Notes under the pieces: generated by a model
The model's database searches: none
What the model was told of the DNA's origin: nothing
Seen by the model: only the letters and a program-made list of their open reading frames with translations
DNA from: an uncultured Acidimicrobiia bacterium
GTDB lineage: Bacteria > Acidobacteriota > Vicinamibacteria > Vicinamibacterales > UBA2999
DNA: 64,000 nt
Assembly (NCBI GenBank): GCA_963784445.1
Contig: CAWARO010000002.1
Location: 563,733-627,732, forward strand
Direction: 5' to 3'
Position numbers and translations under genes: made by a program
Shown here: positions 38,426 through 47,654 of the stretch, one piece after another
Position numbering within the stretch: position 1 is the stretch's first letter
Layout: every line of letters starts with the position of its first letter

Positions 38426-39865
38426 CTACTTGCCGGTCGTCCTGTACGCAGCCAGCACCTTCGACAGCTCGGCCCTCGCCGACGCATGCGCTGGATCGGC
38501 AGCGAGGTTTCGCGTCTCCCCCGGATCGCGCGTCATGTCAAACAGCTGCGTGCCCGCGTTGCCCCCGTCCCACTCGATATAGCGATATGCCGCTGAGCGC
38601 ACCGCGTAGCCGTTCCGAATCTGCGTGAACGCGTACGGCTTGACCGAGCGCGACGGATCGTCGAGGAGCGGGCGGAGGCTGGTCCCCTCGATCTCCGCCG
38701 GCGGTGTCAGCCCGGCGAGGTCGGCCAATGTGCGATAGAGATCGACGAGCTCGGCCAGGCCGGCGGTCACGCGTCCTTTCCCAGCCGCGCCCGGCGCGGC
38801 GATCACGAGCGGCACGCGCGCGCTCTTCTCGAACAAGCTGGTCTTCTGCCACAAGCCGTGATCGCCGAGGTGGTAGCCATGGTCGCTGGTGAAGATCACG
38901 ATCGTGCGATCCGCGAGCCCCAGTCGATCGAGCGCCTTCAGGACCACGCCGACCTGTGCGTCCATCAGGCTCGTCGAGGCGCGGTATGCACGAATCGCCT
39001 CGCGTTTGCGTGTGTCATCCAGTTTGTCTTCCACCGCCCGCGCGCTGGCATACGCGTCCGCCGGCACGCGCGCGCGGTCGTCATCGCTGAGGCTGGGCAG
39101 CGTCACGCGACTCGCATCGTACTGATCGAAGTACGGCTTTGGCGCGACGAAAGGCGTGTGCGGCCGATAGAAGCCCACCCCCAGGAAAAAGTGACGCTTC
39201 TCCTTCGCGAAGCGCTCGAGCAGCCGGACCGCCTCGTTCGCGGCAATGCCATCGGTCTGCTCTGAATCCGGCGCCTCGTCTGCCAGCCAGCTGAGCGTCG
39301 CGCCAAAGTTACCCGGCTCACCGATCGTGGTGATGCGGTCGTGCGCCTCGCGATCGTGTCCGCGTGGATTGATGGTCACGTCCCACGAGCGATAGTCGTC
39401 CAGGCTCGACGTGCCGATGTCGCCCGGCACGCCGTAGTGATAGAGCTTGCCGATGCGCGCGGCCACGTAGCCGTTGCTCTTGAACAACTGCGGCAGCGTC
39501 ACGGCCGCGGGCAGTTTCTCGCGGAGGTGGGGAGACATCGGCCGCGCGGGCGCGGGGTTGGCCAGCACGCCGGTCGAGTTCGGCCGCCGGCCGGTCAGGA
39601 ACGACGAGCGGCTGGGACTGCAGAGCGGGAACTGGGAGTAGGCGCGATCGAAGCGCACGCCGCGAGCGGCAAGCGCGTCGATGTTCGGGGTCCTGACGGG
39701 CGCGCCGTAGACGCCGAGGTCGACGTTCAGATCGTCGGCGACGATCAGCAACACGTTCGGGGCACTTGGTGGGGGCGGAGGCGGAACCGGTTGCGCGTAT
39801 GCACCCGGGGCACACGCGGCGAGGATCGCAACCAAGAGGCAGCGGCGCATCATGGCGCCCATCAT
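38426..39865 (-). CDS. Cys-type sulfatase (formylglycine-dependent)
   Basis: After a signal peptide come LLIVADDL, the FGly motif LCSPSRSSFLTGR (39608-39622) and IVIFTSDHGYHLGDHG. Confidence 0.9.
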   Translation of the reverse strand: MMGAMMRRCLLVAILAACAPGAYAQPVPPPPPPSAPNVLLIVADDLNVDLGVYGAPVRTPNIDALAARGVRFDRAYSQFPLCSPSRSSFLTGRRPNSTGVLANPAPARPMSPHLREKLPAAVTLPQLFKSNGYVAARIGKLYHYGVPGDIGTSSLDDYRSWDVTINPRGHDREAHDRITTIGEPGNFGATLSWLADEAPDSEQTDGIAANEAVRLLERFAKEKRHFFLGVGFYRPHTPFVAPKPYFDQYDASRVTLPSLSDDDRARVPADAYASARAVEDKLDDTRKREAIRAYRASTSLMDAQVGVVLKALDRLGLADRTIVIFTSDHGYHLGDHGLWQKTSLFEKSARVPLVIAAPGAAGKGRVTAGLAELVDLYRTLADLAGLTPPAEIEGTSLRPLLDDPSRSVKPYAFTQIRNGYAVRSAAYRYIEWDGGNAGTQLFDMTRDPGETRNLAADPAHASARAELSKVLAAYRTTGK

Positions 39866-39884: not shown

Positions 39885-42422
39885 TCAGCGCCCGGTTCGC
39901 ACGCGGCTGCCTTGCATCACGAACGCCAGCTCGCGCGGGTCGCCTGGGCGGTCGGGCGCCACCGTGTCGGACGTCAATCGCAAATCGTTGAGACCCGAAC
40001 GCGTTGCTGAAGCCGGCGCTTCGATCCGGCATTCGGTCCACGCCCCCGGCGGCAAGGTGCAGGACGACAGCTCAACACCATTGAGGGACGCGCGAATGGC
40101 CGCTCCGTTGGCGTGCGCCGCCCTCAGCCGCAGCAACAACCGCACGTCAGCGGGCTGTTCCATCCGCCACAGGGTTGACGAGGTCCTGGTCGACCACCGG
40201 TACTGCTGCGTGCCCGCGTGTTCGGCCATGTGCCACCCGGAACCAAAATGCTCGTCGTAATCGAACCCCACATCGAGCGCCCCCGTTGCCGGCAACGTCG
40301 TCACCGGGGCCTGACAGACGCGCACTGCGTGGTCGCTCGATTCGAGCGTGGCGGTGACGGCCGCATTCGGAATCGGGACTGACAACCGAAACACCGATCG
40401 CGTTCCCGGAACCGCATTGAGGATCAGTCGTGACGTGGCGGCAGCGACCGACGCCTCGCCGCGGCCGTTCGACAAGCGATGGCGCCATTCACCCGGCCGG
40501 GCCGCACCTTCGAGCGTGATCTCCGCAGTCCCGCGGCCATCGACGGTGGCATACCAGCCGCCTTCGGCGAGGATCCTCGATACGTCGACGCGCTGCGTGG
40601 TTCGCAACGTCTCGCATGGCACTTCACCACGAAGGATGAACGTCGCGGGAGGAATTTGCGCGCCGGGCTCCTCATTCGGCTTGAATTGCCAACGGCCGAC
40701 GACCCGTCCGGACGGGTTGATCACCACCACCACCAGCCCCCTGTCGATGGCCGCCAATACATCGTCGCCCCACATTACTTGCGGACCGTCGTCGTTGGCG
40801 GAGATCGTGAGCGGTCGGCCGCCAAGCTCGCGGCTGATCGACACCGTCGAGTCGTGTTGCTCGAGCTCGAGATCGGGCTGCCGGATCGTCCACGACACAG
40901 CGCCGAAGTTGGCGGGCCGTCCGCTTTGGTTACGAGCGGGCGTCGGCAGCCATTCGAAGGGCAACAACCTGCCGGCCGACGCCATGAGGACGTTCGTGCC
41001 GGCAGGCTGCTCCGCCATCCATCGCTCGAAGGGTTGCCACGATAGTCCCGTCGGTTCGAAACGAAGTCCGTACGCGGTCAGCGAGGGGATCGCCGCATCG
41101 AGAGCGAACACCGGCCGCCCTTCAGCCGCGGCGGCCTTGACGCGAATGGCATCGTTGTCGAGCAGGCGCGGGTTCGGATCCGGATCGTACTCGTTGGAAT
41201 AGTGCAGGTAATTGAGGATGCGGGCGATGAAGTAGTTGTGCGCCACGACGGCGCTGTTGGGAGGCAAGCGGCGGTACATCATCCTCAATGCGGGGCCTTC
41301 GCCCGGATTGAGCACAGGGGCCAGCTTCGGATAAATGGCGAACAGATTCCAGACTGGAAGTAGCAGCGCCGCCGCCGCGACGAGATTCACCGCGCGGTCG
41401 CCCGGCCGGATTGCCCGCACGATCGTTTCGAGCCCGTACGCCGCGAGCGCCCACAGCAGGACGATCACCGGGGTGATGAACCCGACGACGTCGCCCCACA
41501 GGTTGGCGATCATGGCGAGCGTCCCGGCCGCTCCGCCAGCCACCAGCAAGGCCTCCCAGTTCCTGCGCCATGCGGCGATCCCTATCCCGATCACCACGAG
41601 GATCACCGTCACCGTCCCCATGTGGACGCGCAATCCCTCGAGCAGCATCGGCACTTCGATGCCGACCACCTTGTCGGCCGCCTGATAGAACCGCGCCCAC
41701 GACACGTCGCGCGCGATGATCACGTCGTAGATGCCCCGGATGGTCGTGGCGCGCGCTTCGAGATAGGGCGCCCCCTGGATGGTGCGAAGCGCGATGAACC
41801 CGTACTGCGCTACGCCGATCGCGCCAATCACGGCGGCGGTGGCCAGCACCCGCGGCCGCAGCACCGACCGATCCCTGGCGATCCCGTAGATCAGCGCCGC
41901 CGGAAGTAGACCGACGATGGTGAGGTGGTTGCCGAGGCCGGCGGCGAAGACGATGCAGGCCGCATAAAGACGCCACAAGGTGCCTGTCTGGATCCACGCG
42001 ATCAGCAAATAGATGGTCCACGCCGACATCAAGGCGGCCAGCGTGTAGACCTCGGCGGTGATCGCATTGCTCCACACCGGAAAGCCGGTGGCGGCCGCGA
42101 GCGCCGCCACGGCTGCCAGCGATCGGGACACGCTCACTCGCCGGGCGATCAGGAAAATCAATACGCACGAGAAGACGCCGCAGATCGCCGAGAACAGGTT
42201 GACGCGATAGGCGAGCGTGCCAAGAGGCACGCGCGTGAACACGTACGTGGCGAGGGTGTAGAACGGGTAACCCGGCGTGTGGGCGGTGCCGAGGACCTGT
42301 CCGAGAAACTGAAACTTCGGTGAATCCTCGGTGCCGCCGACGTCGGGCCTGAGCGTGGCGAGAAAGAGTGCGCCCGTCAGTAGGGCGATCGCGATCGCCC
42401 ACACGACATCGCGCCTGTTCAC
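39885..42422 (-). CDS. DUF2723-like (TMEM260/GT-C-type) polytopic membrane protein
   Basis: The GTG start overlaps the upstream stop. The N-terminal signature is EDSPKFQFLGQVLGTAHTPGYPFY. About 10 TM helices are followed by a large soluble C-terminal domain. Confidence 0.8.
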   Translation of the reverse strand: MNRRDVVWAIAIALLTGALFLATLRPDVGGTEDSPKFQFLGQVLGTAHTPGYPFYTLATYVFTRVPLGTLAYRVNLFSAICGVFSCVLIFLIARRVSVSRSLAAVAALAAATGFPVWSNAITAEVYTLAALMSAWTIYLLIAWIQTGTLWRLYAACIVFAAGLGNHLTIVGLLPAALIYGIARDRSVLRPRVLATAAVIGAIGVAQYGFIALRTIQGAPYLEARATTIRGIYDVIIARDVSWARFYQAADKVVGIEVPMLLEGLRVHMGTVTVILVVIGIGIAAWRRNWEALLVAGGAAGTLAMIANLWGDVVGFITPVIVLLWALAAYGLETIVRAIRPGDRAVNLVAAAALLLPVWNLFAIYPKLAPVLNPGEGPALRMMYRRLPPNSAVVAHNYFIARILNYLHYSNEYDPDPNPRLLDNDAIRVKAAAAEGRPVFALDAAIPSLTAYGLRFEPTGLSWQPFERWMAEQPAGTNVLMASAGRLLPFEWLPTPARNQSGRPANFGAVSWTIRQPDLELEQHDSTVSISRELGGRPLTISANDDGPQVMWGDDVLAAIDRGLVVVVINPSGRVVGRWQFKPNEEPGAQIPPATFILRGEVPCETLRTTQRVDVSRILAEGGWYATVDGRGTAEITLEGAARPGEWRHRLSNGRGEASVAAATSRLILNAVPGTRSVFRLSVPIPNAAVTATLESSDHAVRVCQAPVTTLPATGALDVGFDYDEHFGSGWHMAEHAGTQQYRWSTRTSSTLWRMEQPADVRLLLRLRAAHANGAAIRASLNGVELSSCTLPPGAWTECRIEAPASATRSGLNDLRLTSDTVAPDRPGDPRELAFVMQGSRVRTGR

Positions 42423-43544
42423 CGGCTGGATTTTCGCTTGTCGAGGTACGCCGCTTTGAGCGCGTCCACGAAACGCTGATCGACGAGGCCCGGGGGATTG
42501 CCCTGGTAATTGAGGCTCTTCTCGGCGCGAAACTTGTCGACGGCCGCAATGACCTCGTCGTCGAACACGGCGTAGTCGCGCGTGTAGCTCGCCGAGGCCT
42601 GCTTCGCCTCCGCCAGCGCCTTTTCGTAGGCGGCCGGATTCGACTTGCGCAGCTCCTGCATCTTCGGCGAGTTGGCATTGGGCGGCGCCGATGGGAAGGT
42701 GGCGAGGGACGGACGCCAGTACCCGAGCGCGTGCAGCATGCGCTTGAGCTCGACCACGTCCTGGCCTTCAATCCGCGAGAATGTTCGATACCCGAGGCGT
42801 CGTCCCGTCGTGTAGTAAATCCGCTTCATCTCGCCGACGGGCTCGGCATGCTCGCCGACTTCGATCGCGAGCGCAATATGATCGCCGCCGCGGCCGGGAT
42901 CATTCGGATCGGCGATCTTGATTGCCGCCGACTGCAGATTCCCGAAGCGGCGATCGCCGCCCTTGTTCTGGCCGGCTTCCATCGCGAGGATCATGCGCTC
43001 CGCGAGCGGCACGCCCGCGCCTTCCATGGATTCGAACGTCGCCGCCACGGCCTCCACCACCTCGGGGCCAACCATGATGTTGGCCTGCACGGTGTAGTTC
43101 AGCCCCTGCTTCGAGCCGGCCCAATTGCCGTTGCTCTTGCCGGTGTGCGCGGCCGAGCGGCCCTTCATGTCGATCATGCCGAGCTGACGCGACTCGCGCT
43201 GCTGGTCGTCGGACAGCAGCTGCGCGATCGCGGCGGTTGGCTCGACGTCCTTCGCCATCAGGTCGAGTCCGCGCGGTCCGTATTCGACCACGGTCGACGC
43301 CTGCGTGCAGACGGCGCCGATGCCGGCGCGCACGTGAGGCACGGCGCGGCCCACAAACGGTACGCGAGTGGTGACGGCGGCGCCGGATTGACCCGTCGCG
43401 GGGTCTATCGCGCACAGCGAGAACGTCGAATACTGCGGGTTGCCGTCGTCGTTGATCGTGACGCCGTCCGCCGCACGCTGCTGGCGCAGCCGGCGAGATC
43501 GATGCCATGACGACGATTCCGAATAACGCAATGAGTGTTTTCAT
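42419..43544 (-). CDS. DUF1028 (Ntn-hydrolase-like) protein with C-terminal peptidoglycan-binding-like domain, frame broken near 43470-43496
   Basis: The signal peptide MKTLIALFGIVVMASISPAAPAA (ATG 43544) is in one frame. The body ...ADGVTINDDGNPQYSTFSLCAIDPATGQSGAAVTTRVPFVG... is in another. The C-terminus has a PG_binding-like pattern (GQDVVELKRMLHALGYW ... VIAAVDKFRAEKSL). Confidence 0.7.
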
Positions 43545-43562
43545 CGTCGCACCTTGTGCACG

Positions 43563-44924
43563 TTAACTAACCCACAGCCCTCGCGTGATCGTCGGCGACC
43601 CCGCGGCTTCAAACCAGTCGATGCCTTCGCTGACGAGGTCGAACTTCAAGGCGTAACGCCCCGGCTGCTCGGGCGCGGGAATGTCGATCTTCACCTGCGT
43701 GTGGTGTCCGGGCGGCAGATCGTCCGGCAACCACGCGCGCGCGTAATCGCGATCGATCAACGAGCCGTCCGGCGCAACCAGCTGCGCGCCCAACCGCACC
43801 AACCGGCGTCCCGAACTGGTGTTCTTCTTGAACGGCCGCGACGACAGGTTCCTCACCTTTGCGGTCAGCGACAACGTGGTGGCCGGCTTGACCAGGAACG
43901 GCAGGTCGGGCAGCACCGTGTGCACGTCGATCTCGGCGCGCGGCGTCCCTCCGGCAATCGCGTTGCCGAGCCCGCTGTTGTCCCAGATCTCGTGCCGGAT
44001 TCGTTCGTAGTCCGGCGTCCCCGGCGCGAATCGCCGCGAGAAGGCATTCTCGGGATGATCGGTGATCTCCCAACACAATCGATCGACGCCGATCTCGGCA
44101 GCCATCGCGCGGGCCTTCTGCATTTCCTCGTCGCTATCGTTCCAGTTGAACAGGATGTAGCGCCAGTTCACGAACGGCAGGTCGCGGCCGGTCTTGGCGC
44201 GCTCGTCGAGCAGCGCGCGCAGGTTGGCAATCGCCTTGTCAAAATTGCCGCGCTGACGGTATTGAACGTACGTTTCCTGCGATGCGCCATCGAGCGAGAA
44301 GGTGACTTCATCGATCCCCGAACGCGCCAGCTGCCGGACTTTCTCTTCGTTAAATGCCAGCCCGTTGGTGCTGGTGTAGAGATAGATGTGCGGAAACTTG
44401 GTCTTGATGTACTCGCACATCTCGACGGCGCGCTTGTGGAGGAACGCTTCGCCGTAGTTGAAGAAGTCGATGCGGCCGAGGGTTGGCCCGGCTTCGTCGA
44501 TCACCTTCGTAAACAGATCGAAGTCGAGCATGCCGGCCTGACGCGTGCGCGTGATGCCGGTTTCAGGCGCGCAGACCGCCTGGTTGCAGGAAATGTTACA
44601 GGCCGCAGTGCACTCGATATACAGCCGGCCCGGGATCGGGCTGACGTTCAGATCGCGCTGCGGGGGCGCCTGGTCGTCGGACAGCGGCAGCTTGAGTGGG
44701 CAGTCGCCGCAAAAGCTCGATCCGCCCTGGTTGATGTCGGCCCGCAGTTGCGAAGCCACGGGCCCTTGCCAGATGCCGGCAATCGACGTGGTGCGCGCGT
44801 CGCCGAGCACGCGCTTCGCGTACGGGTCGGCGCAGCCGCACACCATGCGGCCGTCGCACAACATCACGCCGATCTGCCAGGGCCACGAGCAGGTATAGCG
44901 CGTCGCGAGATAGTTCTCTGACAT
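43563..44924 (-). CDS. Radical-SAM-like enzyme with N-terminal SPASM/twitch-like Cys domain and C-terminal beta-sandwich-like domain
   Basis: The N-terminal Cys pattern is C12..C23DGRMVC29GC31...C72GDC75, with SPASM-like context (WPW, CDG..C, LGD....IW, CxxC). The core is LYIECTAACNISCNQAVC (44571-44615), FFNYGEAFLH, YTSTNG, TFSLDG. The C-terminus is PGRYALKFDLVSEGIDWF. Confidence 0.75.
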   Translation of the reverse strand: MSENYLATRYTCSWPWQIGVMLCDGRMVCGCADPYAKRVLGDARTTSIAGIWQGPVASQLRADINQGGSSFCGDCPLKLPLSDDQAPPQRDLNVSPIPGRLYIECTAACNISCNQAVCAPETGITRTRQAGMLDFDLFTKVIDEAGPTLGRIDFFNYGEAFLHKRAVEMCEYIKTKFPHIYLYTSTNGLAFNEEKVRQLARSGIDEVTFSLDGASQETYVQYRQRGNFDKAIANLRALLDERAKTGRDLPFVNWRYILFNWNDSDEEMQKARAMAAEIGVDRLCWEITDHPENAFSRRFAPGTPDYERIRHEIWDNSGLGNAIAGGTPRAEIDVHTVLPDLPFLVKPATTLSLTAKVRNLSSRPFKKNTSSGRRLVRLGAQLVAPDGSLIDRDYARAWLPDDLPPGHHTQVKIDIPAPEQPGRYALKFDLVSEGIDWFEAAGSPTITRGLWVS

Positions 44925-45200
44925 CTAGCCTTGGGCCGACTTTCCTAGTCTGCGAAGGTACGATTCGAGCTTGTCGTTCTGGTACTTCACCTGGTTGAGA
45001 AAAATACTTTCGGCGAGATACTCGCGCCGCTCGTCGTCAGTGAGCTGTTCGATCAGGTAATCGATCTCGCGCTTCATGTCCTCGAACGATCGCTCCAGCT
45101 CCTTGCGGGCCGTCACCTCGTGATAGAGCGTTTCGAGCACCGCGAGCAGGTCGCCGTCGAGAACGATCTCTGCGCCCGACGTGGTCTTGATGCTTCTCAT
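44925..45200 (-). CDS. Hypothetical acidic helical protein (91 aa)
   Basis: The stop TAG (44925-44927) directly abuts the radical-SAM ATG (44922-44924). It has no Cys and coiled-coil-like sequence (ARKELERSFEDMKREIDYLIEQLTDDERREYL). Confidence 0.6.
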   Translation of the reverse strand: MRSIKTTSGAEIVLDGDLLAVLETLYHEVTARKELERSFEDMKREIDYLIEQLTDDERREYLAESIFLNQVKYQNDKLESYLRRLGKSAQG

Positions 45201-45239
45201 GATTGAGCACCCGTCTGCGTAATCTGCGCCATCGGTGGC

Positions 45240-45581
45240 TTAGCTCCCGAAGCTCTGGAGGGCGCCTGCCTCATCCGGAAACATCTTCAGGAAATTGTGC
45301 GCGCCGGTCATGGTCAGCATCGTCTCGACGCGCTTGTTGACGCCGGAGAGGCGCAGCTGGCCGCCGGCCGCGGTGGCCTGGCGGTAAAGGTCCATCAGGC
45401 AGCCGATCGTCGCCGAGTCGACATACGTGACCTTCGACAGGTCGATCATCACCTTCTTGTCGCCGCTGGTGAGCAGGCCCATCACGGCGCCGGAGAAATC
45501 CGCGAGCAGCGGATACATCAGGCGCGTTTCGCCAACCCGGACGATGGCGATGCCTTGAGCACGATCAGTAGACAGATTCAT
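45240..45581 (-). CDS. STAS-domain anti-sigma-factor antagonist
   Basis: 113 aa with the SpoIIAA/RsbV-like pattern VMIDLSKVTYVDSATIGCLMDLY...GGQLRLSGVNKRVETMLTMTG. Its ATG overlaps the sigma gene stop (ATGA at 45578-45581). Confidence 0.85.
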   Translation of the reverse strand: MNLSTDRAQGIAIVRVGETRLMYPLLADFSGAVMGLLTSGDKKVMIDLSKVTYVDSATIGCLMDLYRQATAAGGQLRLSGVNKRVETMLTMTGAHNFLKMFPDEAGALQSFGS

Positions 45582-46174
45582 TCCGTTACCCCTTCATCCG
45601 TTTCTCGAATGCGCTGCACCTGGCGGGCCAGCTCCGTACGCCCGCGGTTGATGCGTGATTTCACGGTGCCTTCCGGCAACCCCAGTTGATCGGCGATCTC
45701 CTGGTACGACAACTCCTGGATGTCGCGCTTGACCACCGCTTCGCGCAGCGTCGGCGGCAGTTCGGCCATCGCCTTGCGCAGCAACTCGACCCGGTCGGCC
45801 TGCTCGAGCGCCTGATAGGCGCTTTGGCCCGGCGCCGCCGGCGTCAGCTCGCCGGCGTCGACGTCGCGATCGATCGTCTCGCGCTCCTTGCGCACGCTGC
45901 GATAGTGATCGATGCACAGGTTGCGGCTGACGCTGACCAGCCAGGTCTGGAAATTGGCGCGCCGATCGAACGTGTGCAGCGACTTGAAAATCTTGAGAAA
46001 GATGTCCTGCGTCAGATCCTCGGCTTCGTCGTGCCGGCCGGTGAATTTGTACGCGATGTTGAACACTTTCCGCCGGTGCTGCCGAACGATGTCTTCCCAA
46101 GCCACCTGATCGCCGCCAAGGCAACGCTGGATGAGCGCGTCGATCGCATCAGTAGGGACCGAAGGGTCAGACAT
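45578..46174 (-). CDS. ECF-type sigma-70 family RNA polymerase sigma factor
   Basis: ATG 46174 (MSDPSV...). Region 2 is DLTQDIFLKIF and FQTWLVSVSRNLCIDHYR. Region 4 is LSYQEIADQLGLPEGTVKSRINRGR. There is no region 1 or 3. Confidence 0.9.
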   Translation of the reverse strand: MSDPSVPTDAIDALIQRCLGGDQVAWEDIVRQHRRKVFNIAYKFTGRHDEAEDLTQDIFLKIFKSLHTFDRRANFQTWLVSVSRNLCIDHYRSVRKERETIDRDVDAGELTPAAPGQSAYQALEQADRVELLRKAMAELPPTLREAVVKRDIQELSYQEIADQLGLPEGTVKSRINRGRTELARQVQRIRETDEGVTE

Positions 46175-46242
46175 CGCTAACGAGGCTCCGCCACCGACCA
46201 TCCCGCAGGCGCCATCGGCTCCGCCTCGCTGGGGCAGCGTTT

Positions 46243-46267
46243 CTTGCCCCGCCTCCGGCGGGGCGAG
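46243..46267. promoter_or_regulatory. 11-bp-stem hairpin in the sigma/lysA divergent region
   Basis: cttgccccgcc-tcc-ggcggggcgag lies ~70 nt upstream of the sigma-factor start. No U-tract follows on either strand. Confidence 0.3.
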
Positions 46268-46328
46268 ACGTCCTGAAGGGTTCATGAAGTTGATACGAGA
46301 ACATGCGCCGGTCCCTTCATGACGTCTG

Positions 46329-47654
46329 GTGAACCGGGAACGACTCGTCCCCGACTCGAAATCATACCATCCCGTCCCGCCAAGCTCGGCCGCATGTCAC
46401 GATAGAATCGGGGGAGTGGCTGCCACCACTCCCTCGACACTTTCAGACCAGAGGACCGCGCGGCTCGGCGACATCGCCGCGTCGGCCGGCACGCCCTGCT
46501 ACGTCTACGACGCCGGCGGCATTCGCGCCGCCTACGCCACCCTCGATCGCGCCTTCGACGGCTATCCGCACGCGATTCACTACGCGCTGAAGGCCAATTC
46601 GTCGCTGGCGGTGGTGCGACTGCTGCAATCGCTCGGCAGCCACGCCGACGCCAATTCGCTTGGCGAAGTGGACGTGGCGCTGCGGTGCGGTTTCCGTCCT
46701 GATCAGATCGTGTTTACCGGCGTCGGTAAGAGCGCCGCCGAGATCGATCGCGCGGTGTCGCTCGGGTTGCTCGCGATCAACGTCGAGTCGCCGGGGGAGC
46801 TCGACCGGATCGATCAGCGCGCCGTCGCGCAGAACGTCCGGGCGCGGGTCGCGCTGCGCGTCAATCCCGACATCGACGCGAAGAGCCACCCGCACATCTC
46901 CACGGGGCTCAAGTCGAATAAGTTCGGCGTGCCGATCGACGAAGCGCCGGCGCTGTTTCGCGAGATGGCGGGGCGGCGCGGCTTGCAGCCGGTGGGCGCG
47001 CACGTCCACATCGGCTCGCAGATCACCTCGCTCGAGCCACTCGAGAAGGCGGCGCAGGCGGTGGTGTCGCTCGCGCATGCGCTCCGTGGTGAGGGCATCG
47101 AGCTGCAGCATCTCGACATGGGCGGCGGTCTGGGGATTTCGTACGACGGCAGCCCGGTGGCCGACCCGGCGGCGTATGTGCGCGCCCTCGTCGGCGCGAC
47201 GCGCGGCAGCGGCTTGAAGGTGGCGATCGAACCCGGCCGCGTGCTGGTGGGGCCTGCCGGCGTGCTGCTGACGAAGGTCGTGGACGTCAAACAGTTTCCC
47301 GGTGCGAAGCGTTTCGTCGTGGTGGACGCGGGCATGACCGAGCTGATGCGGCCGGCGCTGTACAACGCCTATCACCGCATCGAGCCGCTGGTGCGCCGCG
47401 ACGGTGACGAGACCATCGTCGATATCGTCGGCCCGATCTGCGAGAGCACCGACGCCTACGCGCGCGATCGCGCGTTTCCGCCTGTGCACGTGGACGATCT
47501 GCTCGTGGTCGCCGACGTAGGCGCCTACGGCGCCGCGATGGGGCATACCTACCTGCGCCGTCCGCTGCCGCCTGAGGTGATGCTCGACGGCGGCGACTGG
47601 CGTATCATTCGCCGTCGTCAGACGTTGGACGAACTGCTGTCTCTCGAGGAATAG
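46329..47654 (+). CDS. lysA: Diaminopimelate decarboxylase
   Basis: Motifs include GTPCYVYD, HYALKANS (PLP Lys), DMGGGLGI, EPGR and CESTD. The start is uncertain (GTG 46329 or GTG 46416). Confidence 0.9.
   Translation: MNRERLVPDSKSYHPVPPSSAACHDRIGGVAATTPSTLSDQRTARLGDIAASAGTPCYVYDAGGIRAAYATLDRAFDGYPHAIHYALKANSSLAVVRLLQSLGSHADANSLGEVDVALRCGFRPDQIVFTGVGKSAAEIDRAVSLGLLAINVESPGELDRIDQRAVAQNVRARVALRVNPDIDAKSHPHISTGLKSNKFGVPIDEAPALFREMAGRRGLQPVGAHVHIGSQITSLEPLEKAAQAVVSLAHALRGEGIELQHLDMGGGLGISYDGSPVADPAAYVRALVGATRGSGLKVAIEPGRVLVGPAGVLLTKVVDVKQFPGAKRFVVVDAGMTELMRPALYNAYHRIEPLVRRDGDETIVDIVGPICESTDAYARDRAFPPVHVDDLLVVADVGAYGAAMGHTYLRRPLPPEVMLDGGDWRIIRRRQTLDELLSLEE

Follow-up and report, generated by a model that had tools for sequence, protein, structure and literature searches.

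A predicted radical-SAM enzyme family with an N-terminal twitch-like domain and a CX3CX4C cluster loop, linked to an ECF sigma-factor operon in Vicinamibacteria

The DNA analyzed here is a stretch of 64,000 nucleotides (hereafter the window) of contig CAWARO010000002.1 (GenBank assembly GCA_963784445.1, positions 563,733 to 627,732), from an uncultured bacterium of the Vicinamibacterales. It carries a gene for a 453-aa radical S-adenosylmethionine (SAM) protein that directly follows a set of regulatory genes (Table 1). A previous reading of the letters alone (the sequence-only reading) had recognized a radical-SAM protein with a SPASM/twitch-like pattern in its N-terminal part, and Pfam searches bore this out, with both matches above cut-off: SPASM (PF13186, 28.9 bits for a cut-off of 21.5, E 1.4e-6, profile positions 1-67 of 67) and Radical_SAM (PF04055, 41.5 bits for a cut-off of 29.5, E 2e-10). 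The pattern spelled out at that time, C12-x10-C23DGxxxC29-x-C31 followed by LGD, IW and C72-x2-C75, is present in the protein. Of the domain content, the SPASM/twitch part and the radical-SAM core had been predicted correctly, and a third domain at the C-terminus, resembling the four-tryptophan (FW)/immunoglobulin (Ig)-like domain of NBR1, had been overlooked. The claim that the auxiliary domain lies ahead of the barrel, the reverse of the usual order, was confirmed by Pfam and by alignment for the 453-aa protein and for all of the family members that were inspected, and a Pro-rich linker (residues 76-100) joins the two domains. More than 3,500 homologues were found, the closest in metagenome-assembled genomes (MAGs) of Vicinamibacterales, and 17,791 relatives were present at E<=1e-3 among 1.84 billion cluster representatives. 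We place the protein within the SPASM/twitch lineage of radical-SAM proteins, as one member of a large uncharacterized family.

Table 1. Features of the radical-SAM locus, in positions of the window (ORF, open reading frame; ECF, extracytoplasmic function; AF2, AlphaFold2)
Feature	Position	Strand	Basis and remarks
Radical-SAM gene, 453 aa, start ATG	43563..44924	minus	ORF; three domains: N-terminal twitch/SPASM-like, radical-SAM core, C-terminal FW/Ig-like
N-terminal twitch/SPASM-like auxiliary Fe-S domain (putative), residues 12-76	44697..44891	minus	Pfam SPASM; Cys 12, 23, 29, 31, 72, 75
Radical-SAM core, residues 105-244	44193..44612	minus	Pfam Radical_SAM; motifs FFNYGE (GGE-type), STNG, FSLDG
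Cluster loop C109-NIS-C113-NQAV-C118 (CX3CX4C)	44571..44600	minus	Orthologue alignment and loop count
C-terminal NBR1-like FW/Ig-like beta-sandwich, about residues 345-453	43563..43892	minus	Weak Pfam match, AF2, Foldseek
91-aa protein gene	44925..45200	minus	Stop codon abuts radical-SAM start codon (TAGATG)
STAS protein (anti-sigma-factor-antagonist type), 113 aa	45240..45581	minus	Pfam STAS E 4.8e-15; NCBIfam ant_ant_sig 50.4 bits, cut-off 53.45
ECF-type sigma-70 factor, 235 aa, 4-nt overlap with STAS gene	45578..46285	minus	Pfam Sigma70_r2, Sigma70_r4_2; NCBIfam sigma70-ECF 121.7 bits, cut-off 42.9
DUF1028 gene, first downstream of radical-SAM gene	42419..43531	minus	ORF list and Pfam
TMEM260-like/PMT_2 protein O-mannosyltransferase-domain membrane protein, 845 aa	39885-42422	minus	Between DUF1028 and sulfatase genes
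Sulfatase with signal peptide, third gene downstream	38426..39865	minus	CSPSR at 39608-39622

Radical-SAM enzymes are usually recognized and annotated by a CX3CX2C motif. This motif is absent anywhere in the 453-aa protein, whose loop reads C105-TAA-C109-NIS-C113-NQAV-C118 (codons nt 44612-44571). The sequence-only reading had proposed either CX3CX3C or CX3CX4C for this site. In 17 orthologues (72-90% identity), C109, C113 and C118 are invariant whereas C105 is replaced by Thr in two (P0001 and P0056), so that the triad is CX3CX4C and the first option falls away. Many orthologues read CNISCFQACC, with an additional Cys at position 117. Spacing was then counted in 270 homologues, and the loop was visible in 209. 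The CX3CX4C form (Cys at +4) was found in 190 of these, in several architectures and down to ~35% identity, and the departure from the canonical motif at nt 44571-44612 is therefore not only real but conserved. In 13 homologues a Cys stood at +2, as is canonical (11 with plain CX3CX2C), three had CX3CX3C and two CX3CX5C, and one lacked the third Cys. A normal CX3CX2C at this place, the sign by which a local sequence error was to be recognized, was found neither in close nor in mid-distance homologues and was limited to a remote clade of 28-31% identity.

The length of the loop could be followed in an alignment spanning 28-78% identity (the diverse alignment), in which C-P-Q-P-A-C of the main clade corresponds to C-P-A-C of the canonical clade, a difference of two residues. 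The pairwise alignment to BlsE (7vob) likewise places the canonical third Cys two residues before C118. CX3CX2C, CX3CX3C and CX3CX5C occur in remote relatives that share the architecture, and a rough neighbor-joining tree built from 70 core regions intermingles the +2, +3, +4 and +5 spacings, with no clear ancestral state or number of changes. We infer that C109, C113 and C118 are the ligands of the SAM cluster, carried on a loop two residues longer than the canonical one. Deviant spacings are known from ThiC (CX2CX4C) and HmdB (CX5CX2C). The family described here resembles them in having a deviant but family-conserved spacing of the three-Cys SAM-cluster site, and differs from them in the spacing itself, in its SPASM/twitch lineage, and in that the third Cys stands at +2, +3, +4 or +5 within a single family.

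The remainder of the barrel looks like that of an active enzyme. The three invariant Cys lie at the expected site at the start of the barrel, and the SAM motifs follow at residues 157-159 (YGE, within the GGE-type FFNYGE), 185-188 (STNG) and 210-213 (SLDG), with G158, E159, N187, G188, D212 and G213 invariant in the diverse alignment. Because the SAM motifs are present and the key residues do not vary, a working enzyme is favored over a pseudo-radical-SAM protein. The closest matches in a sequence search of the PDB (12 at E<=1) were BlsE (1.2e-5) and BtrN (8e-5), and FFNYGE, STNG and FSLDG align with the GGE, TNG and SLDG motifs of BlsE. With Foldseek, the core matched LIAS, viperin and NifB in the PDB. 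The closest NCBIfam matches of the core were SPASM-family maturases, all far below their cut-offs. The 453-aa protein is thus probably a functional twitch-type radical-SAM enzyme, whose substrate may be a protein partner. BtrN (4m7t) and BlsE share with it the GGE, TNG and SLDG-type motifs, are the best solved-structure sequence matches to its core, and each have one auxiliary-cluster domain, which is made up of the first SPASM half-motif. They differ in that their twitch domain is C-terminal, their cluster motif is CX3CX2C, no FW/Ig domain is attached and their substrates are small and sugar-type.

Of the seven-Cys SPASM motif CX9-15GX4C...CX2CX5CX3C...C, the N-terminal domain has the first half alone, namely C12, G25 followed by C29/C31, and C72xxC75. 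No CX5CX3C follows C75, and because this second half (CX5CX3C...C) is absent the domain is called twitch-like here. Like C109 and C113, the cysteines C29, C31, C72 and C75 do not vary in the diverse alignment, and C12 hardly varies. The domain would then probably hold one [4Fe-4S] auxiliary cluster on four of C12, C29, C31, C72 and C75. The twitch domain of BtrN (residues 187-255) aligns weakly to residues 10-75. To have treated the reversed order as unknown among SPASM enzymes was probably an overstatement. The NCBIfam family NF033640, named "N_Twi_rSAM" (twitch domain-containing radical SAM protein), appears to have the same order, as judged from its name and from its N-terminal profile positions. 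The 453-aa protein falls outside this family by score, with 25.8 bits for a cut-off of 170 (core residues 143-246 on profile positions 167-273), as do its relatives with 30-40 bits (39.6 at most). P0135 and P0172, two of the relatives, show a weak alignment of their N-terminal domain with positions 4-73 of the 398 of NF033640, in which no single stretch exceeds the threshold. A reversed domain order is thus probably already catalogued and is not in itself new.

The C-terminal domain was recognized mostly by its predicted fold. Pfam N_BRCA1_IG matched residues 345-433 below its cut-off (19.7 bits for 28). When the AF2 model is divided into blocks of 10 residues, most of those in the C-terminal region have a mean predicted local distance difference test score (pLDDT) of ~80-93, with one dip to 60, for a mean of 71.8 over the whole protein. 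In the Foldseek search of the PDB, the top match was to the NBR1 FW domain (4ole, E 1.2e-7, TMt 0.63), closely followed by the Fw domain of ILRUN (6vhi, TMt 0.72), both resembling the C-terminal ~110 residues. The likeness to the NBR1/ILRUN domains thus lies in the fold and in the weak Pfam match, whereas identity is 13-19% and the known domains are modules of eukaryotic autophagy receptors or regulators, and not fusions to a bacterial radical-SAM protein. In PMC9233695, the Nbr1 FW domain is described as a protein-recognition module that recognizes cargo proteins. Some relatives of the 453-aa protein have three copies of the FW-like domain, and other paralogues have DUF4214 repeats in its place. 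Among the cluster representatives, three proteins of 821-1535 aa (P0212, P0213 and P0255) consist of 6-12 tandem FW-like copies without any radical-SAM part. As tandem copies occur in proteins without radical-SAM domains, the FW-like domain can be regarded as a mobile bacterial repeat module.

Read along the minus strand, the genes come in the order ECF sigma factor, STAS protein, 91-aa protein, radical-SAM protein, DUF1028, TMEM260-like glycosyltransferase and sulfatase. To see which of these neighbors are kept, a tblastn census was made of 82 orthologous loci (68-92% identity) from MAGs of Vicinamibacterales and other Acidobacteriota, with flanks of up to 8-10 kb. The gene for the 91-aa protein is directly upstream and on the same strand in 81 of the 82, the exception being cut by a contig end, and its distance to the radical-SAM gene is ~4-300 nt across loci. 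A STAS gene is present in 80 loci and an ECF sigma gene in 75, most of the others again ending at a contig end. Further neighbors were lysA (73/82), tmk (68/82), DUF1028 (18/82) and the TMEM260-like gene (9/82, after the radical-SAM/DUF1028 pair). A scan of genome contigs with the diverse alignment kept 80 loci, all of them close orthologues (68-92%), and so added depth rather than breadth. In Vicinamibacteria the radical-SAM gene is therefore tied to the ECF sigma/STAS operon, as the last gene of a conserved four-gene unit. The operon suggests that the protein may be either an effector or an input of the sigma-factor module. A literature search on ECF sigma factors with STAS returned no matching system, and a promoter and terminator scan of 42300-46500 gave nothing better than shuffled sequence.

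Two side observations were made in these flanks. In the window, the start of the DUF1028 gene (43470-43544, minus strand) has an apparent frameshift, with a signal peptide, MKTLIALFGIVVMASISPAA, from an ATG at 43544 and the mature part, QQRAADGVTINDD, in another frame. A single continuous DUF1028 ORF of the form "signal peptide-(A)QQRAADGV" is found in 17 orthologous loci. One extra C near 43483-43484 (GCG-C-CAG) could explain the frameshift, either as an assembly indel or as a real pseudogene. Secondly, two loci (L001 9710-10000 and L002 9765-10000) have a tandem repeat between the small-protein gene and the radical-SAM gene that translates to "HQITKSPNHQITRS" in several frames. The repeat is absent from the window, where the two genes abut.

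The 91-aa protein itself had no Pfam match above cut-off and no NCBIfam match. The 120 homologues listed were all close orthologues (at least 76% identity), without a Pfam domain and with names that are spurious. It has no Cys at all, and its conserved blocks are LDGDLL, YL.E..FL and YEN. The AF2 model (pLDDT 87) shows a beta-hairpin followed by two long helices, for which Foldseek found no match in the PDB at E<=0.001. Such a shape would suit a small regulator at least as well as a radical-SAM substrate, and a NepR-like anti-sigma factor acting with the STAS protein would be one example of such a regulator. The analogy is drawn from the sigma-EcfG/NepR/PhyR system.

Beyond the orthologues, relatives of ~46% identity have the same three domains; those with a name are mostly from Aminicenantes or other Acidobacteriota, and one is labeled Chrysiogenia. 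In two of their loci (L085 6919-8000 and L089 4919-6000, of the P0122 clade, one of them the locus labeled Chrysiogenia), the radical-SAM gene begins just where an MglB/MglA-like gene pair, coding for a Roadblock/LC7 protein and a Ras-like small GTPase, ends. This is a second and different regulatory pairing for the family. Another relative (L086) lies within a GT4 glycosyltransferase/Bac_transf polysaccharide cluster. The others are near genes for glycosyltransferases, UDP-glucose dehydrogenase, SIS or GlmS-like proteins (GT1, UDP-glucose dehydrogenase and SIS/CBS in the case of L083), or are solitary. No family-wide conserved neighbor was found, and a sulfatase was absent from all nine distant loci inspected. 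A tblastn search of plasmids returned only remote relatives with the canonical motif, annotated "4Fe-4S cluster-binding domain-containing protein" or "radical SAM protein". After three remote members there is a large gene on the same strand encoding 632-904 aa (L093 8010-12236, on the Alisedimentitalea plasmid NZ_CP123585.1; L084 9483-12197; L091 8221-10119). One of the three is annotated as a calcium-binding protein and two have no Pfam match; they could be the substrates in those lineages.

From these data we favor, with moderate confidence, the view that the protein works as a radical-SAM enzyme within the SPASM/twitch lineage and is not a sulfatase maturase, its auxiliary domain coming before the barrel and its loop being CX3CX4C. 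The cluster stoichiometry, the catalysis and the substrate class that follow are inferred. The cluster on C109/C113/C118 would bind SAM and cleave it reductively to give a 5'-deoxyadenosyl radical, and this radical would abstract H from a substrate that lies between barrel and twitch domain. By analogy with BtrN and BlsE, the auxiliary cluster may accept an electron or anchor the substrate. The C-terminal FW/Ig-like domain may dock a macromolecular partner, for which the 91-aa protein is the leading, still putative, candidate.

Several observations weigh against this model. In the AF2 model pLDDT is below 50 at every Cys loop (residues 1-13, 68-79 and 106-131). The 91-aa protein, devoid of Cys, resembles a folded regulator more than a substrate. 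The Ig-like domain also matches beta-sandwich (carbohydrate-binding) modules of glycosidases in Foldseek. Outside Vicinamibacteria the neighborhood is not conserved, the nine distant loci having no sigma, STAS or small-protein neighbors, so that little can be learned from the operon about what the whole family does. Finally, a literature search found no paper on a CX3CX4C motif or on an N-terminal SPASM/twitch layout.

Among the more specific functions that can be imagined, the one that survives best is that the enzyme matures the 91-aa protein by a radical modification such as a crosslink, an epimerization or a C-H functionalization, with the FW domain as the docking site. Modification of this adjacent protein had been the second suggestion of the sequence-only reading. 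Many SPASM/twitch enzymes modify peptides or proteins, and the near-constant position of the small gene directly upstream, abutting in the window, and its strongly conserved blocks agree with such a role. It would also agree with the binding of proteins by the FW domain of Nbr1 (PMC9233695). However, the small protein has neither Cys nor a leader/core layout and is predicted to be stably folded, no RRE or PqqD-like domain was found in the enzyme (Pfam, E<=1), and the three-domain relatives of ~46% identity have no such neighbor. A NepR-like anti-sigma role beside the sigma factor and the STAS protein would be equally fitting. Overall, maturation of the 91-aa protein is a tentative proposal that we consider rather unlikely to be correct.

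A somewhat less probable alternative, which we rate as unlikely, is a BtrN/BlsE-like twitch enzyme that modifies a sugar, cyclitol or glycan of the cell envelope, with the Ig-like domain serving as a carbohydrate-binding module. The sugar-type substrates of BlsE and BtrN, the closest solved relatives by sequence, would point this way, as would the glycosyltransferase surroundings of L086 and L083, the DUF4214 domains of remote paralogues, the GT-C glycosyltransferase of TMEM260 type downstream in the window and in some orthologous loci, and the glycosidase modules matched by Foldseek. The sugar-related contexts are, however, a minority and not conserved. The PDB sequence matches are restricted to the generic radical-SAM core (E ~1e-5), and the top structural match of the C-terminal domain is a protein-binding FW domain.

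The operon also invites the thought that radical-SAM chemistry or the redox state of a cluster is a direct input to sigma-factor partner switching, which we hold to be doubtful. More doubtful still, and in our view improbable, is that the protein is an Fe-S redox or oxygen sensor, or an inactive pseudo-radical-SAM protein, feeding ECF sigma/STAS partner switching. The strict linkage to regulatory genes in Vicinamibacteria could be explained in this way, and so could the position directly after the Roadblock/GTPase pair in two Aminicenantes-type loci; the cluster loop departs from the canonical form, and weak matches were obtained to TIGR04347, a curated pseudo-SAM/SPASM family. On the other hand, the three cluster Cys and the SAM motifs are invariant over a wide divergence, which argues for retained SAM chemistry, and the family extends far beyond the regulatory context.

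The sequence-only reading had suggested a sulfatase maturase, that is, an enzyme of the anaerobic sulfatase-maturating enzyme (anSME) type making formylglycine on the Cys-type sulfatase of the window. The anSMEs (AtsB, anSMEcpe) carry CX3CX2C in their N-terminal part and end in a seven-Cys SPASM domain that holds two clusters. They share with the 453-aa protein the radical-SAM superfamily and a Cys-rich auxiliary domain of SPASM type, and the CSPSR sulfatase, with its signal peptide, is encoded nearby on the same strand. It is the third gene downstream, and not two genes away as had been stated, as the DUF1028 and TMEM260-like genes lie between. A motif scan of the 64-kb window (GNxxEW) found no signature of a formylglycine-generating enzyme (FGE), in agreement with what had been noted. 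This absence means little because the contig measures ~1 Mb, of which the window covers a small share, and an FGE gene may lie elsewhere on it. The census speaks clearly against the link, as a sulfatase was found in 0 of the 82 orthologous loci, within flanks of up to 8-10 kb, and in 0 of the nine distant ones, leaving the one in the window as a chance neighbor. In addition, the protein has neither the C-terminal seven-Cys domain nor CX3CX2C, no anSME model was among the 25 NCBIfam families listed of 39 matches (each at 23% of its cut-off or less), and no sulfatase maturase was among the 12 PDB matches at E<=1. The link to the sulfatase was rejected on the strength of the 82-locus census, and a maturase function appears very improbable. 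The proximity is coincidental and no basis on which to plan experiments.

An assembly indel in nt 44571-44615 as the source of the odd Cys spacing has a negligible probability: the contig does seem to have at least one indel, in the nearby downstream DUF1028 gene with its signal peptide out of frame with the mature part, but the reading frame of the radical-SAM gene is intact, and an indel in the Cys loop was ruled out because 190 homologues, drawn from numerous independent assemblies and sequencing sources, have CX3CX4C as well.

There are precedents for deviant cluster spacings as well as for a family with an N-terminal twitch domain; what is real and unstudied here is a conserved deviant loop together with a permuted, FW-fused layout. 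The CX3CX4C family comprises thousands of sequences, mostly from Acidobacteriota among those with a name, plus remoter paralogues, and screens based on a CX3CX2C motif would miss or mis-annotate such members. With relatives at +2, +3 and +5, it points to a third ligand placed on a loop of adjustable length. The family joins an N-terminal twitch domain and a longer loop to a docking domain of the FW type otherwise known from eukaryotic autophagy receptors. To our knowledge, control of a sigma factor through radical-SAM chemistry or the redox state of a cluster has not been described so far. If radical-SAM input to partner switching were true, it would be exerted by a family that also shows the cluster loop to tolerate CX3CX4C. 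The Vicinamibacteria are an abundant soil lineage in which this gene belongs to a sigma-factor operon that is conserved almost universally, and finding the substrate of the radical-SAM enzyme would also explain a core regulatory module of these bacteria.

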